NCBI GenBank assembly: GCA_963766715.1 | Contig: CAVYBH010000012.1 | Location: 160,001-224,000, forward strand | From: an uncultured delta proteobacterium | Lineage (GTDB): Bacteria; Myxococcota; Myxococcia; Myxococcales; Anaeromyxobacteraceae | Reading direction: 5' to 3' | Length of the DNA: 64,000 nt | Shown: positions 31,657 to 38,766 of the stretch, one piece after another | Numbering within the stretch: position 1 is the first letter of the stretch | Layout: every line of letters starts with the position of its first letter | Position numbers and translations under genes: made by a program | The notes under the pieces: model-generated | The model's input: the letters and a program-made list of their open reading frames with translations, nothing else | Database searches by the model: none | What the model was told of the DNA's origin: nothing

Positions 31657-34656
31657 TTGCCTTCCGTCACGCGCATCGAGGTCGGGACCCGTCCCGGCTT
31701 CACAGACAGCCTGGGTAGCTCCGTCGCCCGCCGGATCAAGGAACACCTCGGGCTCGCCCCCGGGCGGGTCCGGACCCGGGACGTCTTCCACGTCGAGGCC
31801 GCGCTCTCCCCGGCGGAATCCGAGGCGGTGGCCCGGGAGTTCGCCGGCCCGATCGTGCGCCAGGGCGCCGTGGGACGCCTCGACGACGGCCCGTTCGGCG
31901 TCGCCGTCTCGGTGGGCTACAAGCCGGGCGTCACCGACCCGGTCGCGAAGAGCGCCCGGGTGGCGATCGAGGACCTGCTCGGCCGTCCCCTGGGCGAGGG
32001 CGCCCACGTCTACACCTCGCGCCTCTACCTGCTCGACGGCGTCTCGGAGGCGGAGGCCGGGCGCATCGCCCGGGCGCTGCTCGCCAACGAGGTCATCGAG
32101 CGGGTGGGCGTGCAGTCGTACGCGCAGTGGAGCGCGTCCCCGCCCGACCTCTCGGTGCCGCGGGTGGCGGAGCATGCCGCCCGGCCGGTCGAGACGGTGA
32201 GCCTGGAGCTCTCCGACGACGCGCTCCAGGCGCTCTCGCGCGAGCGGCTGCTCGCCCTGTCGCTCGAGGAGATGCGGACGCTGCGCGACTTCTACCGCGC
32301 CGCCGGGATCCGACCCGGTGCGCCGCGCCGCCGGGCTGGGCGCGTCGCCCACCGACGTCGAGCTGGAGTGCCTGGCCCAGACCTGGTCGGAGCACTGCAA
32401 GCACAAGATCATGAACGCGGTCATCTCCTACCGGGAGGAGGGCCGTCCCCCGGAGGAGATCCGGTCCATCTTCAAGACCTTCATCCGCGGCACCACCGAG
32501 GCGGTCGACCAGGCCATCCAGGCACGCGAGGGCAAGAGCTGGCTCGTCTCGGTCTTCCACGACAACGCGGGCGTCATCGCGGCCACCGACCGCTACCACC
32601 TCGTCTACAAGGTCGAGACCCACAACAGCCCCTCGGCCCTCGACCCGTACGGCGGCGCCATCACCGGCATCGTCGGCGTGAATCGCGATCCCTTCGGCAC
32701 GGGGATGGGCGCCGACCTCCTCTCGAACACCTGGGGCTACTGCTTCGGCCCCCCGGAGTGGTCCGCGGAGTTGCCCCCGGGCCTCCTGCACCCGCGCCGC
32801 ATCCGGGACGGCGTGCACTCCGGCGTGATCGACGGCGGCAACCAGTCGGGCATTCCCTACGCCCGTGGCTGGGAGTTCTTCGACGAGCGCTTCCTCGGGA
32901 AGCCGCTCGTCTACTGCGGCACGGTGGGCCGCATGCCGGTCACCATCGCCGGCGCGCCGGGGGAGCAGAAGCACGCCCGGGCCGGCGACCGCATCGTGAT
33001 GGTGGGTGGACGCATCGGCAAGGACGGGATCCACGGCGCCACGTTCTCGTCCGCGGAGCTGACCGAGGAGAGCCCGGTCCAGGCCGTGCAGATCGGCGAT
33101 CCCATCACCCAGAAGATGATGTTCGACTTCCTCCTCGAGGCCCGGGAGCGCGGCCTCTACTCGGCCATCACCGACAACGGGGCGGGCGGCCTGTCGTCGT
33201 CGGTGGGCGAGATGGGGAAGCAGCCCGGTGGCGCCCGGCTCGACCTGGCGCTGGCGCCTCTCAAGTACCAGGGCCTGGCTCCCTGGGAGATCCTGGTCTC
33301 CGAGGCCCAGGAGCGCATGACGGTGGCGGTGCGCCCGGAGAAGCTCCCCGAGTTCCTCGAACTGGCGCGGCTGCGCGAGGTGGAGGCCACCGATCTGGGC
33401 GAGTTCACCACCGAGCCCCTCTTCCACCTGCTCCACGCCGGGCGGACGGTGGGGCTCATCCCCATGGCGTTCCTCCACGACGGGGATCCGGAGATGCGGA
33501 TCGTCGCGGAGTGGAAGGAGCCCGCGATCTCGGCGTTCCCGGCCACCCCGGTCCCGGGCGGCCGACGAGGGGAACGCCCTCGCCCGGGCCCTGCTCGGCC
33601 GCGACAACCTGCGTTCGTCCGAGGACCTCGACGCGCACCTACGATCACGAGGTGAAGGCGCTCACCGTGGTGAAGCCCTGGATCGGAGCCTCCCGCGACG
33701 TGCCGGCCGACGCGGCCGTGCTCCAGATCGCCCACGACGGTGGCCACGTCGGGTACGCGCTCGGCGAGGCCGTCTTCCCGACCTACTCCGACCAGGACGC
33801 CCACGCCATGGCCCAGGCCGGCGTGGACCTCGCGGTCCGGCGCGTGGTGGCCGCCGGGGCCCGCCTCGACCGGATCGCGCTGCTCGACAACTACTGCTGG
33901 CCCGATCCGCTCGAGGGGCCGAAGAACCCCGACGCGCGCCACAAGGCGGCCCAGCTCGTCCGCGCCTCCCGCGGTCTCTCCGAGATTTGCCGCGCCTACG
34001 GGGCCCCGCTCATCTCGGGCAAGGACTCGATGAAGAACGATGCGGTGGTGGGCGGGAAGCGCATCTCCATCCCGCCCACGCTGCTGGCGTCCGCCATCGC
34101 CATCGTCCCCGACGTCCGCAAGGCGCTGACCCTCGAGGCCTCCGGTCCGGGCGAGGTGCTGTTCCTCGTGGGCGAGACCGGCGACGAGCTGGGGTGCTCC
34201 GAGTACGCCGCGCTGCGCGGAACCGCCGGCGGGCTCGTGCCCCGCTGTCATCCGGAGGCCTTCCACGCGCGCTACCGCCGGGCGTCCCGGGCCATCGCCG
34301 AGGGGCTCGTCACCGCGGCCCACGCACCGGGACGCGGAGGCCTGCTCGTGTCCCTGTTCTTCCTCGCCCGGGCCGCGGGGCTCGGGCTCGACGTCGATCT
34401 CTCCCGGGTCCCGACCTCGGGGTCGCCGGGCTGGGAGGCTCTCCTCTTCGGCGAGTCGGCCGGCCGGCTGCTGCTGGCGGTGAAGCCGGGACAGGTGGCC
34501 GAGTTCACCCGCCGGCTCGAGGGCGAGCCGGTGGCGCGGCTCGGAACCTACGGTCCGGGCAGCCGGCTGCGCATCTCCCTCGGCGGCCGCGCGGTCGTCG
34601 ACGAGGACGTCGACGAGCTGGCGCGCGCCTGGAAGCGGGAAGGGGGTCGCGCGTGA
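31657..34656 (+). CDS. purL: FGAM synthase PurL with fused N-terminal PurS-like region (frameshifts ~32320 and ~33570-33635)
   Basis: PGVTDP, QTWSEHCKHK, KVETHNSPS, DGIHGATFSS, DNGAGGLSSS, SEAQERM, ISGKDS, LFGESAGR. Confidence 0.93.
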   Translation: MPSVTRIEVGTRPGFTDSLGSSVARRIKEHLGLAPGRVRTRDVFHVEAALSPAESEAVAREFAGPIVRQGAVGRLDDGPFGVAVSVGYKPGVTDPVAKSARVAIEDLLGRPLGEGAHVYTSRLYLLDGVSEAEAGRIARALLANEVIERVGVQSYAQWSASPPDLSVPRVAEHAARPVETVSLELSDDALQALSRERLLALSLEEMRTLRDFYRAAGIRPGAPRRRAGRVAHRRRAGVPGPDLVGALQAQDHERGHLLPGGGPSPGGDPVHLQDLHPRHHRGGRPGHPGTRGQELARLGLPRQRGRHRGHRPLPPRLQGRDPQQPLGPRPVRRRHHRHRRRESRSLRHGDGRRPPLEHLGLLLRPPGVVRGVAPGPPAPAPHPGRRALRRDRRRQPVGHSLRPWLGVLRRALPREAARLLRHGGPHAGHHRRRAGGAEARPGRRPHRDGGWTHRQGRDPRRHVLVRGADRGEPGPGRADRRSHHPEDDVRLPPRGPGARPLLGHHRQRGGRPVVVGGRDGEAARWRPARPGAGASQVPGPGSLGDPGLRGPGAHDGGGAPGEAPRVPRTGAAARGGGHRSGRVHHRAPLPPAPRRADGGAHPHGVPPRRGSGDADRRGVEGARDLGVPGHPGPGRPTRGTPSPGPCSAATTCVRPRTSTRTYDHEVKALTVVKPWIGASRDVPADAAVLQIAHDGGHVGYALGEAVFPTYSDQDAHAMAQAGVDLAVRRVVAAGARLDRIALLDNYCWPDPLEGPKNPDARHKAAQLVRASRGLSEICRAYGAPLISGKDSMKNDAVVGGKRISIPPTLLASAIAIVPDVRKALTLEASGPGEVLFLVGETGDELGCSEYAALRGTAGGLVPRCHPEAFHARYRRASRAIAEGLVTAAHAPGRGGLLVSLFFLARAAGLGLDVDLSRVPTSGSPGWEALLFGESAGRLLLAVKPGQVAEFTRRLEGEPVARLGTYGPGSRLRISLGGRAVVDEDVDELARAWKREGGRA

Positions 34657-35454
34657 AGACCGTTCGCGTGCTCGTCCCCGTCGGGTTCGGCCTCAACTGC
34701 GAGGACGAGACCGCCCATGCCTTCCGCCTGGTGGGGGCCGAGGTCGACCTCGTCCATCTCACCGATCTCTTCGCCCGCCGCCACCCGCGCCGCATCGCCG
34801 ACTACCAGGTGCTCGCCATGGTGGGCGGCTTCTCCTACGGCGACCACGTCGCCGGCGGGCTGGTGCTCGCCACCCGCATCCGCGCCCACCTGAAGGACGA
34901 CCTGGGCGCCTTCCTGTCCGGCGGGGGCAGGGTGCTCGGCATCTGCAACGGGTTCCAGGCCCTCACCCGGCTCGGGCTCCTGCCCGGACCGGAGGCCGGC
35001 GCGCCGGACTTCACGCCCCGTGCGACGCTCACGAACAACGAGCGGCAGGGGTACCGGGACTGCTGGGTCCGGGTCGCGCCGGATCCCGGGAGCCACTGCG
35101 TCTGGACGAAGGGGCTCTCCGCCGTGGACCTGCCTTCCCGCCACGGCGAGGGGCGGTTCGTCGCCGAGTCGGACGAGGCGCTCCGCCGCCTCGATGCCGG
35201 CGGGCGGCTGCCGCTTCGCTACGTCGACGCGCGAGGGGAAGATCGCGGAGCGCTGGCCGGAGAACCCCAACGGCTCCGCGCTGGGCGTGGCCGGGGTCTG
35301 CGACGCCACCGGGCGCATCCTCGGGCTCATGCCGCACCCGGATGCCTTCCTGTACCCCTGGCATCACCCCGACTGGCCGCGCCGGCGCCGGGAGCTCGAG
35401 GCGATCGAGGCGGGCGGACTCGGGTTCTTCCGGGCGGGCGTGGAGGGAGTCTGA
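34653..35454 (+). CDS. purQ: FGAM synthase glutaminase subunit (frameshift ~35238)
   Basis: GFGLNCEDET, GGFSYGD, GICNGFQ, HGEGRF, NPNGS, GLMPHPD. Confidence 0.93.
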
Positions 35455-36729
35455 TGGGCGGCCGGGGGCGACTCCTGCTGCTCGTGCCCACGCAGAGCTA
35501 CCGCGCCGAGGACTTCCAGGCCGCGGCGGCCCGGCTCGGCGTCGAGGTGGTGGTGGGCACGGACCGGTGCCATCGCATCGAGGACGCGTTCGGGCCGAGC
35601 GAGGGGTTGCTGTCGCTCGACTACCGGAAGCCGGAGGCGGCGGCCGAGGAGATCGGCCGCGAGGCCGCCGCGCGCGAGATCGCCGGCATCGTCCCCGTCG
35701 ACGACGGGACCGCGGTGATCGCGGCGCTCGCCGCCGAACGGCTCGGACTGCCGCGCAACCCGCCCGCCGCGGCCCGGCGAACGGCCAACAAGCTCTCCCA
35801 GCGGCAGGCGCTCCAGGCTGCCGGGGTCCCGGTGCCGCGCTTCCAGGCCTTCCCGCTCGCCGGAGGCCCGGACGGCCCGGCCGCCGGCGTCGGGTATCCC
35901 TGCGTCCTGAAGCCCCTCGGCCTGTCGGCCAGCCGGGGCGTCATCCGCGCCGACGACCCGTCCTCCTTCCGGGAGGCCTGGACGCGCATCGTCGCCATCC
36001 TCGCCTCGGCCCGCAGCGAGCGAAAGGCCCGGGAGGAGGGGGCCGGAAGCCAGCTCCTCGTCGAGGACTTCGTGCCCGGGCCCGAGGTCGCGCTGGAGGG
36101 GCTCCTGCGGGGCGGCCGCCTCGAGGTGCTGGCCCTCTTCGACAAGCCCGACCCGCTCGACGGGCCGTTCTTCGAGGAGACGATCTACGTGACGCCGTCC
36201 CGCCATCCCGCCGCGGCGCAGGCCGAGGTCGAGCGGGTCATCGGCGCGGCCGCGGAGGCGCTGGGACTCCGCGAGGGGCCGGTTCACGCCGAGGCCAGGC
36301 TGGGTCCTTCGGGTCCGGTGGTGCTGGAGGTGGCGGCCCGGACCATCGGCGGGCTCTGCGCGCGGGCGCTCCGCTTCGGGACCGGCGCGTCCCTCGAGGA
36401 GCTGGTGGTCGCGCACGCCATGGGGCTGCCGCTGGCCTCGGTCCGCAGGGAGTCGCAGGCCTCGGGCGTGATGATGCTCCCCATCCCGAGGCGCGGCGTC
36501 CTCCACGGGGTGGCCGGCGTCGCCGCGGCCCGGGAGGTGGCCGGGGTCGAAGGACGTGGTGATCACCGTCCCGGAGGGGCGCGAGGTGGTGCCCCTGCCG
36601 GAGGGGGACGCCTACCTGGGCTTCCTCTTCGCGCGCGGCAAGACGCCCGAGGGGGTGGAGTCCGCGCTGCGCGAGGCCCACCGGAGGCTGTCGTTCGACA
36701 TCCGGGCGCCGCTCCCCACGATCGGCTAG
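35454..36729 (+). CDS. ATP-grasp ligase (L-amino-acid-ligase-like; frameshift ~36550)
   Basis: NKLSQRQAL, YPCVLKPLGLSASRGVIRAD, LVEDFVPGPEVALEG, HAEAR, LEVAARTIGG; YLGFLFARG in the next frame. Confidence 0.88.
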
Positions 36730-36739
36730 GGCCGGCGCG

Positions 36740-38155
36740 TCACTTCGGGTCGAGCGGGGCCACCTGCCCCGCGGTGGGCTCCGCTCAACAGAACCAGTTC
36801 TCGGTGAGCCGGGGCGTCCCGGCCGTGGAGAACGGGCGGGCCACGTGGGAGTGGGTCCGGCCGGCGGCCGCGAGCGCGAGCGCCTTCACCCGGGCCATCG
36901 TCGCCTGCGCATCCTCCCCCCGCGTGGCCGCGGCGTCCACGACGGCGGCGACGCGGGACTGGAGCGCGTCCATCCGCGGATCGGGGTGGCGCCAGCGCCA
37001 GCTGAGCGCCGCCTCGTCGAGCTCCTCGAGCCGCAGCCCGGGGTCGTCGAGGAGCAGCGACCCCGGAGGAACGAGGAGGCGCAGCGAGAGCTGGACCGGG
37101 TCGATCCGCTCCAGCCAGCCCTGCTGCTCGAAGGTCTCGAGGACGTCGAGGTAGCCCTCCAGCGTCTCCCAGGGGGTGAAGGGCACCAGGGTGGGCCGGA
37201 GCGGCAGTCCGGCCCGGTCGCACAGCTCGAAGGCCCGGAAGACGTCGTGGCGGGTGTGACCCTTCGCGAGCCTGGCCAGCACGAGGTCGGAGAGCGACTC
37301 GACGGCGGTGACCGCGAAGGCGGCTCCGGAGGCGACGAGCTCCGGGAGCACGTCCTCGTCCCGGACGAGGTGCTCCACCTTGGCGGTGAAGTCGAAGGTG
37401 AGGGCCGGGAAGCGCCGGTGGAGCTCGCGTGCGATCCGGAGCGCGTGGACCGGCCCGTTCAGGAAGTCGGGGTCGCCGAAGGTGACGTGGGTGACGCCGG
37501 CGCTGACCTGCTGCTCCACGTCGGCGAGCACCGTCTCCGCGGGGACGGCGAAGAAGCGCCCGTCGTACACCGCCGGGATGGGGCAATGGCGGCAGCGGTG
37601 CAGGCAGCCGCGGGTCGTCTCGGCGTAGCCGGCCAGCCGCTCCCGGCCGTCCGGCTCGCGCAGGCGGGCATAGCGCTCGGGAGCGGGCAGGCCCTCCCGC
37701 CGGGGGACCGGAAAGTCGAGCCGCCGGAGCGAGGCGGCGCTCCCGCCGCGCTGGACGAAGCGGGAGAGATCGTCTCCCCGCTCGAGCGCCCCGGCGAGCG
37801 CCACCAGCTCCTCCTCGCACTCCCCGCCGAGCACCGCCGACGCGCCGGCCTCGAGCAGGAGGGGAGCGTGGAGCGGAGCGTACGTTCCGTGAAAGGCGAG
37901 GACCGCGCCGGGATGGAGGGCCCGGATGCGAGCGGCGGCGTCCAGGCCGAGCCGCAGCGCGGTGTGCATGGGGACGGAGACGGCGACCAGCCGGGCCCGG
38001 CGCACCCGTCCGGCGTCGAGCGGCTCCACGGCCAGGTCGAGCGTGGAGGGGCGAAACCCGGCGCGCGACAGGAACGCCAACGGGACCGCGATGCCCTGCG
38101 GCTGGTGACCCAGCTCGTAGGTGGAGACGAGGAGGATCTCTCCCTCGCCCCGCAT
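36740..38155 (-). CDS. CUAEP-tail radical SAM selenoprotein (Sec encoded by TGA at 36787-36785)
   Basis: RGCLHRCRHC CxxxCxxC motif, N-terminal cobalamin-binding-like domain; C-terminus reads WF-C-TGA-AEPTAGQVAPLDPK-TGA. Confidence 0.9.
36754..36772 (-). promoter_or_regulatory. Bacterial SECIS-like hairpin
   Basis: GCGGGGC-AGGTG-GCCCCGC, a perfect 7-bp stem starting 12 nt after the in-frame TGA, with G early in the apical loop. Confidence 0.75.
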
Positions 38156-38162
38156 GACCGGC

Positions 38163-38441
38163 CTAGCCCTTGCGAGGAGGCGGGACGTAGTCCGGCGGGA
38201 GCTGGGCGCCCGCGCCGAAGAAGAACTGCTCCGCCTGCTGGAAGAGGATCTGGTTCGTCTTCGGGTCGCCCGGGGCGAGGCGGTACTCGTTCAGGATCAT
38301 CTTGAAGTGCTCGAGCCACATCTTCCAGGCCTCCTGGGAGATGGAGTCGAAGATGCGCTGGCCGAGCTCGTTCGGGAAGGGCTTGAAGGCCATTCCCGGG
38401 AGTTCCTTTCCGAGCTTCTTGCAGTGGACCGTACGAGCCAT
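38163..38441 (-). CDS. yggX: Fe(II)-trafficking / oxidative damage protection protein
   Basis: [50 protein letters not shown]. Confidence 0.93.
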
Positions 38442-38532
38442 CGGGGGAGCTCTCCTGTGGGCGAGGAAGAGGAGATAAGCGAGACGCCCGCCGCTTGCAC
38501 GACGGGCGCCGCGGGTCCTGCCTGGAAGCCGG

Positions 38533-38766
38533 TCAGGAGATGAGCGAGGCGGGGCTCACGCCGAGCGCCTTGGAAAGCGACTCGAGGGTGTCGAGGGGCG
38601 GCGTGCGCTGCCCGCGCTCCAGCATCGAGATGTAGGACACGGAGAGGCCGGCCTTGCCGGCCAGGGTCTCCTGGGACAGCTTCCGGCGCAGTCGCTCGGA
38701 CTTGAGGTTGGCGGCGAACTTGTCGGAGAGCGATGCGCTGCGGCGGTTCTTGGAGGGATTTGCCAT
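38533..38766 (-). CDS. XRE family HTH regulator
   Basis: [32 protein letters not shown]. Confidence 0.88.

Follow-up and report, generated by a model that had tools for sequence, protein, structure and literature searches.

The closest studied relative of the gene described here is ArsL, the radical S-adenosylmethionine (SAM) enzyme that forms the C-As bond of arsinothricin. In the accessible parts of two preprints, ArsL is reported to cleave SAM at the C-gamma-S bond, yielding a 3-amino-3-carboxypropyl radical, and to form the C-As bond, with three C-terminal cysteines binding As(III); ArsL without its tail keeps SAM cleavage, and product formation is abolished (bioRxiv 10.1101/2024.02.01.577332; 10.64898/2026.04.29.721666). 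A family with a different tail has been named in a preprint by Haft, which in its accessible part calls this CUAEP/CCAEP family uncharacterised (Haft 2022, bioRxiv 10.1101/2022.07.06.499078). It is catalogued in NCBIfam as NF040546, "CUAEP/CCAEP-tail radical SAM (seleno)protein". Here we analyse a minus-strand gene of this family in a 64,000-nucleotide (nt) window, positions 160001-224000 of contig 12 in an assembly of 18 contigs and 4.2 Mb from an uncultured Anaeromyxobacteraceae bacterium (GCA_963766715.1). An in-frame TGA in this gene had been proposed, in an initial annotation of the window, to encode selenocysteine (Sec).

Classical bacterial Sec insertion sequences (SECIS), such as that of Escherichia coli fdhF, are hairpins that follow the UGA closely and lie within the gene itself. 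The window gene resembles this arrangement (Table 1). Comparison with its relatives indicates, with a probability of roughly 95%, that 36743..38155 (-) encodes a 471-residue NF040546 radical SAM enzyme whose UGA codon 457 is decoded as Sec. The gene is an ordinary member of a catalogued family, and our result corrects the annotation of a single gene without being a discovery. In annotation terms, the right call is one of 471 codons, the 457th of them for Sec; to selenoprotein biology nothing new is added.

Table 1. Features of the radical SAM gene, its surroundings and the Sec machinery. Positions are those of the window unless a contig or locus is named; occurrences refer to the 80 homologous loci described in the text.
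Feature	Position or occurrence	Strand or placement	Details
CUAEP-tail radical SAM selenoprotein (predicted), full coding sequence	36743..38155	-	471 codons, ATG at 38155, Sec = codon 457
Predicted Sec codon, in-frame TGA (U457)	36785..36787	-	aligned codon TGA 68, TGC 6, TGT 3 (77 homologous loci)
Post-Sec tail codons AEPTAGQVAPLDPK	36743..36784	-	A/S458, E459, P460, Q464 conserved family-wide
Putative SECIS hairpin, 7-bp stem GCGGGGC/GCCCCGC, loop AGGUG	36754..36772	-	12 nt after UGA, within tail codons
Predicted true stop TGA	36742-36740	-	15 codons past Sec UGA, 11 nt past hairpin
Radical SAM cluster motif C184-x3-C188-x2-C191	37583..37606	-	GCLHRCRHC; Cys invariant 71/71; PF04055 55.5 bits
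yggX (Fe2+-trafficking protein)	38163..38441	-	PF04362 122.7 bits; ends 7 nt upstream of radical SAM ATG
L-amino-acid-ligase (LAL)-type ATP-grasp gene	35454..36729	+	convergent; ends 10 nt from radical SAM stop
LAL-type ATP-grasp neighbour	38/80 loci	within ~4 kb	convergent, or same-strand downstream or upstream
YggX neighbour	23/80 loci	directly upstream	Myxococcota, Chloroflexota
Nfu-type protein neighbour	23/80 loci	21: same strand, start 34-260 nt after Sec codon	NifU domain, Pfam on two representatives
DUF169 neighbour	8/80 loci	follows radical SAM gene	one representative checked
tRNA-Sec	C12:514471-514565		82.5 bits; ARAGORN: tRNA-SeC, anticodon TCA
selD	contig 9, 55113-55955 (L021:1501-2403)	-	362.9 bits, one in-frame TGA

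Read-through frame and family assignment

Re-reading of the sequence confirmed the letters and both TGA triplets on which the initial annotation had been built. The minus strand at 36790..36740 reads TGT TGA GCG GAG CCC ACC GCG GGG CAG GTG GCC CCG CTC GAC CCG AAG TGA, directly preceded by the codons TGG TTC. A program-made list of open reading frames (ORFs) gives a 456-residue ORF at 36785..38155 (-), closed by the first TGA, just as had been remarked. When TGA is translated as U, the protein continues as ...PRLTENWFC-U-AEPTAGQVAPLDPK up to the second TGA, in agreement with the C-U-A-E-P tail that had been proposed. In this frame, the TGA triplet would carry two meanings within 48 nt of the minus strand, Sec at 36787-36785 and stop at 36742-36740.

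The profile of the NF040546 family extends through the added tail. The cut protein scores 632.6 bits over profile positions 1-457 of 468, and the read-through protein scores 653.5 bits with its residues 7-466 on profile positions 1-467; the residues gained fill positions 458-467. Cut or read through, the whole protein exceeds the curated cut-off of 500 bits, so that the family signature invoked in the initial annotation corresponds to an existing family to which the protein belongs. Its tail, WFC-U-AEP, follows the family pattern C-(U or C)-A-E-P, and the CX3CX2C motif is present as C184, C188 and C191. In Pfam, the protein matches Radical_SAM (PF04055, 55.5 bits) and, weakly, B12-binding (PF02310, 24.0 bits, under the cut-off of 32.1), a candidate for the N-terminal cobalamin-binding domain of class B radical SAM enzymes. 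A six-frame profile search of the genome with NF040546 revealed a single copy of the gene (646.9 bits), with one TGA inside.

Compared with other NF040546 members, the protein agrees in length, in the CX3CX2C motif, in the W-F-C-U-A-E-P tail and in the profile position of Sec. It differs in nothing substantial: its source is an incomplete, metagenome-type assembly of a relative in the Anaeromyxobacteraceae, and ordinary ORF calls end it at the UGA. NCBI already gives the family name to proteins of Anaeromyxobacter oryzae and A. paludicola that are 68-69% identical to the window protein. In the full-text literature, with few subscription journals covered, the Haft preprint was the only relevant paper on CUAEP/CCAEP, and a search of full texts joining radical SAM, selenocysteine and 3-amino-3-carboxypropyl returned nothing on the NF040546 family.

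Conservation of the tail beyond the UGA

A protein search returned thousands of relatives, and the statements made here cover the 120 listed, with 95-67% identity. Nearly all of these listed matches are 455-458 residues long, that is, ended at the same codon; the nearest database proteins (95% and 92% identity) have 456 residues each. In the few longer homologues that were fetched, the extra length consists of insertions or N-terminal extensions, and the end is still WFC.

The DNA of the relatives was examined in a scan with one genome per species. At least 574 loci in this one genome collection encode a relative, which makes the family a large one, and the best 80 (L025-L104) were kept. At 77 of them, W-[F/Y]-C is followed by TGA (68), TGC (6) or TGT (3) and then by [A/S]EP; the remaining three (L055, L070 and L099) are ended by contig edges. 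The tail [A/S]EPxxxQ is kept in Sec and Cys forms alike, and in all nine Cys forms a hydrophobic residue comes next. The 68 TGA forms are spread over many phyla, and in them the third positions of the A, E and P codons vary with 1.1, 0.6 and 1.67 bits and the first and second positions with at most 0.38 bits. Such a bias towards the third position in codons +1 to +3 is what a peptide that is translated and under selection would show. The comparison proposed in the initial annotation thus came out in favour of read-through: Cys stands at the TGA position in 9 of the 77 loci, the AEP tail is conserved and the homologous loci do not end at WFC.

An alignment of 71 of these sequences shows which residues do not vary in the family. 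Invariant Cys or Sec positions are C184, C188, C191, C456 and U/C457, with no others; W454, E459 and P460 are likewise invariant, F455 is found in 70 of the 71 sequences and Q464 in 69. Left out of this alignment were L031, L034, L037, L056, L063 and L088, which have extra stops, very long tails or truncations, and, at an earlier stage, L049, which has an internal frame change. In a quickly built maximum-likelihood tree of these sequences, it takes at least six changes to account for the nine Cys forms, and three of these changes are forced by well-supported branches. The Cys forms are placed inside Sec clades, the direction of change being left unspecified by an unrooted tree.

Three loci of this tree (L072, L083 and L095) deserve a separate remark. 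A record under the title Nitrosotalea sp. (an archaeon) has a copy that groups with one from Dormiibacterota with 100% support and end branches of 0.12 and 0.083, and two records titled uncultured Clostridia sit in a Blastocatellia clade. The contigs appear to have been wrongly binned or labelled, unless the copies were transferred recently.

Within the taxonomic family of the window, Anaeromyxobacteraceae, the gene is nearly universal, being present in 22 of the 24 other genomes. Across 41 genomes (that of the window and 40 relatives) there are 27 matches, 25 of which reach the tail, the window's own included, and each of these carries exactly one TGA. The two matches that lack a TGA are partial and end before the tail.

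A covarying hairpin downstream of the UGA

The initial annotation had described a perfect stem starting 12 nt after the TGA and had read it as a SECIS. The stem is indeed there, formed by 36772-36766 paired with 36760-36754 around a loop at 36765-36761, and RNAfold draws exactly this hairpin in a 33-nt segment (-16.2 kcal/mol). Like the classical SECIS of fdhF, it has an apical loop with G and U, which here lies 19 nt from the UGA. Unlike it, the stem is short, at 7 bp, and is placed in the last 15 codons, where its bases encode a conserved peptide as well as a structure.

Since this DNA is very rich in G+C, the folding of one sequence cannot decide whether such a stem has a function, and comparative analysis was used instead. 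We aligned 63 nt from 68 TGA loci, the window included, leaving out L088, whose contig ends there. The stem columns, 19-25 with 31-37, are paired in 81.5% of cells. Both sides of a pair have changed in 84 cells compared with 31.8±4.1 in column shuffles, none of 500 of which reached 84, and the covariation score is 0.450 compared with 0.189 in shuffles; any slid register gives at most 0.217 and at most 62.8% paired cells. A register with a 4-nt loop (columns 19-25 with 30-36; 62.8% paired, covariation 0.217) is used by some relatives, such as L033 and L044, and was rejected as worse overall. An RNAalifold consensus was also set aside: it consists of the inner five pairs and a three-pair element over the UGA, and two of those three pairs never vary and are uninformative.

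Sec and Cys forms were also compared. Of the 68 Sec forms, 62 have five or more contiguous pairs at the site in one of three registers, and none of the nine Cys forms does, these having at most two contiguous pairs there; in each of the other six Sec forms RNAfold draws a hairpin that is interrupted or shifted. Folding of the 33-nt segment gives a mean of -13.4 kcal/mol for the 68 Sec forms and of -5.1 kcal/mol for the nine Cys forms. The loop is AGUUG in 31 of the 68 TGA forms and AGGUG, as in the window, in five. Covariation of the stem in the TGA forms, together with its absence from the TGC and TGT forms, is the behaviour to be expected of a SECIS, which upholds the reading given in the initial annotation. 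The hairpin after the UGA would thus act as a bacterial SECIS. By the textbook bacterial mechanism, SelB with Sec-tRNA(Sec) would bind it and insert Sec at codon 457, and translation would run for 14 more codons and end at the second TGA, which has no hairpin behind it.

Two observations on the RNA weigh against this reading. A 66-nt segment folds into another minimum-energy structure, in which the UGA region is paired differently (z = 0.00 relative to shuffles), and Rfam gave no match in the region 36650-36900. We know of no Rfam model for bacterial SECIS elements of this kind, and hence no match was expected. The first of these points would suit the view that the first TGA is a real stop, that the protein ends after 456 residues with WFC and that the hairpin is untranslated, for example a G+C-rich stem formed by chance or a structure at the transcript ends of convergent genes. 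The ORF list, which ends at the first TGA, and the convergent ATP-grasp gene, which ends only 10 nt from the second, also fit this view. It has to contend with a post-TGA tail that is conserved in 68 loci of many phyla with third-position variation, with nine homologues whose codon is one for Cys and is followed by the same tail, with a stem that covaries only in TGA forms and with a family profile that extends through the tail. Moreover, a promoter and terminator scan of 36500-38700 found nothing, a terminator-like site included. Because 68 of 77 loci have TGA, the tail after it is conserved and the stem covaries, a chance hairpin can be excluded, and we consider termination at the first TGA very improbable.

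Sec machinery and assembly errors

Decoding of the UGA as Sec implies a Sec machinery elsewhere in the genome, as the initial annotation had predicted, and its parts were found. Besides tRNA-Sec and selD (Table 1), there are matches to selB (275.3 bits) and to selA (278 bits over two same-frame pieces, and a further 188.6 bits in a shifted frame), the last with an apparent +1 frameshift in this assembly. The translation of selD runs ...SHGAGUACKIRP and places Sec at the glycine-rich active-site loop (GAGUACK), so that SelD would be a second selenoprotein of the genome. A second match to the tRNA-Sec model on contig 1 (7012-7097, L002) scores 50.7 bits, compared with a gathering threshold of 47, and may be another long-arm tRNA.

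On the other side of the balance stands the state of the assembly. The genome is 84.6% complete, and one extra T at L009:1499-1500 (contig 15, ~350218), inside VVED|LGSGALF, puts the two parts of selA in different frames. If the extra T were real, the strain could not make Sec-tRNA. The gene would then be built for Sec in a strain with a broken pathway, where the UGA terminates and only the truncated enzyme is made. In favour of this stand the selA match in two frames and the one extra T that interrupts the VVED-LGSGAL motif. Against it, contigs of three public runs that span the break omit one base there. Run X1 gave one contig of 763 nt, with eight other differences over 646 nt, and run X2 one contig; run X3 gave two contigs without the extra T, at a depth of 17.8 of 37.6 and thus for part of the depth only, and run X4 does not cover the place. 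These contigs come from near relatives, not demonstrably from the strain itself, which lessens their weight for Sec decoding in it.

A second one-frame break, in the ATP-grasp gene of the window (~36544-36551), is absent in relatives. L025, the nearest relative, has the gene in one frame, and L028 and L093 have single ORFs of 439 and 409 residues. The break is an apparent single-base error or a pseudogene, and its presence fits an assembly with occasional single-base errors. In-frame selA is probably the common form and the extra T probably a consensus error, judging from these sequences. In addition, the other parts are intact: tRNA-Sec, selB and selD, the last of these with an in-frame TGA too, as well as the radical SAM TGA with its SECIS. 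Loss of Sec synthesis in this strain therefore appears quite improbable.

The same errors could raise the suspicion that the TGA itself arose from TGC or TGT through faulty base calling or assembly, in which case the protein would be a plain Cys-Cys (CCAEP) form. At least two single-base frame errors are apparent in the assembly, and Cys forms do exist, at 9 of the 77 loci. However, the errors observed break the frame by a single base (one is an inserted T) and none is a substitution, and all 25 tail-reaching matches among the 41 genomes have TGA, so that the miscall named as a danger in the initial annotation is not credible. The window further has the 7-bp stem after its TGA, whereas the nine Cys forms have two contiguous pairs at most, and the nearest database proteins also end at 456 residues. 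A miscalled Cys codon is accordingly exceedingly improbable, and decoding of codon 457 as Sec remains by far the best account of the locus.

Comparison with ArsL and structural relatives

An AlphaFold model built on a 24-sequence alignment (mean predicted local distance difference test, pLDDT, 90.4; predicted template modelling score, pTM, 0.89) reveals a two-domain body, in which a Rossmann-like N-terminal domain is joined to a radical SAM barrel with the CX3CX2C motif. Residues 441-471 have block means of 65, 67, 46 and 33, and such weak pLDDT values fit a mobile tail.

The overall layout is reminiscent of AprD4, with which the model shares the Rossmann-like N-terminal domain and the radical SAM barrel. 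AprD4 has a domain of the cobalamin-binding type, in which it is not known to hold cobalamin. It is the best structural match (PDB 6fd2; template modelling (TM) score 0.67-0.70, E = 2e-19), followed by TsrM, OxsB, MgmA and MiaB; no ArsL structure is among the structural matches listed. By sequence, only AprD4 (E = 1.5e-5) and 9ccb match in the PDB, and the protein thus has no close solved relative. Identity to AprD4 and to the cobalamin-type radical SAM enzymes TsrM, OxsB and MgmA is only 14-20%, and none of these has a Cys-Sec tail.

Comparing the protein with ArsL reveals a closer relationship. The ArsL model NF040542, described as an RCCLKC-tail radical SAM model, is its second-best NCBIfam match (276.1 bits, residues 7-405 on positions 1-411 of 423). 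Both enzymes are homologous over the whole catalytic body, have the canonical CX3CX2C motif and carry a short C-terminal tail with a Cys-Cys or Cys-Sec pair, which holds functional residues in ArsL and would hold them here. The tails differ. Whereas the accessible descriptions of ArsL give RCCLKC or CCXXC, the present family has WFCUAEP... and no third invariant Cys outside the cluster motif, and, unlike ArsL, the NF040546 enzyme is a selenoprotein in most lineages.

By analogy with ArsL, the flexible W-F-C-U-A-E-P tail may bring into the active site a Cys-Sec pair that binds the substrate or is redox-active. The 456-residue product would probably still cleave SAM and lose the real reaction, like tail-less ArsL. 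The 471-codon call would therefore be needed, because a call of 456 residues drops the part that, on this analogy, the real reaction should require.

Several observations speak against carrying the chemistry of ArsL over to this family. The score of 276.1 bits falls short of the ArsL cut-off of 450 bits, and the alignment stops before the tail. The tail offers two chalcogen ligands, C456 and U457, not the three cysteines of ArsL, and no arsenic-related genes, arsM included, were seen among the neighbour groups annotated. With two ligands in place of three and no arsenic genes seen nearby, we do not claim arsenite as the substrate.

Gene neighbourhood

In the window, the radical SAM gene is closely flanked on both sides (Table 1). 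It is probably co-transcribed with yggX, and it converges with a LAL-type ATP-grasp gene, which in the relatives is one ORF of 409-439 residues with the domains ATPgrasp_N, ATP-grasp_4 and LAL_C2. Neighbours were counted among the 80 homologous loci, and the counts are lower bounds because many loci are short.

The ATP-grasp gene is the most frequent neighbour. By record titles, the loci linked to it belong to Anaeromyxobacteraceae, Rokubacteria/Methylomirabilota, Acidobacteriota, Planctomycetota and Chloroflexota. YggX and the Nfu-type protein are mutually exclusive, with no locus having both. These counts suggest a pathway that carries an amino-acid product on to ligation, with an iron-sulfur cluster in need of a helper, and the recurrent linkage with an amino-acid-ligase-type ATP-grasp and YggX or Nfu offers a concrete start for finding the reaction of the family.

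Other ligases of the LAL type build dipeptide antimetabolites, for example bacilysin and tabtoxin. A joint reading of body, tail and neighbours would be, in place of a stand-alone enzyme, a widespread and undescribed small pathway, with the NF040546 enzyme taking the first step by ArsL-like chemistry, followed by ATP-grasp ligation and serviced by YggX or Nfu. We offer it as speculation that is more probably wrong than right by a wide measure. In such a pathway, and with the same reserve for each part, the 3-amino-3-carboxypropyl group of SAM might be transferred, on the analogy of ArsL, to a soft atom held on the Cys-Sec tail, such as a metalloid, sulfur or selenium species. An unusual amino acid might be formed in this way and be joined to another residue by the ATP-grasp ligase, while the adjacent YggX or Nfu might service the iron-sulfur cluster.

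Some candidate neighbours were not retained. A first clustering was confounded by antisense shadow ORFs of high-G+C DNA and was replaced by a stricter one; what had clustered as a "141-aa protein" was the ATP-grasp gene read in antisense. An enoyl-CoA hydratase (nine loci) is lineage-limited, the printed members being mostly Gemmatimonadota with two Rokubacteria/Methylomirabilota, and was not taken as linked. The same holds for a response regulator (eight loci), all of whose records are of Anaeromyxobacteraceae type.

Just upstream of the ATP-grasp gene, the plus strand carries pieces of phosphoribosylformylglycinamidine (FGAM) synthase at 32201-35400, with AIRS/AIRS_C in 32201-33655 and GATase_5 within 33987-35400. 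A 1055-residue ORF at 33987..37154 is one frame that runs across several genes and is not itself a gene.

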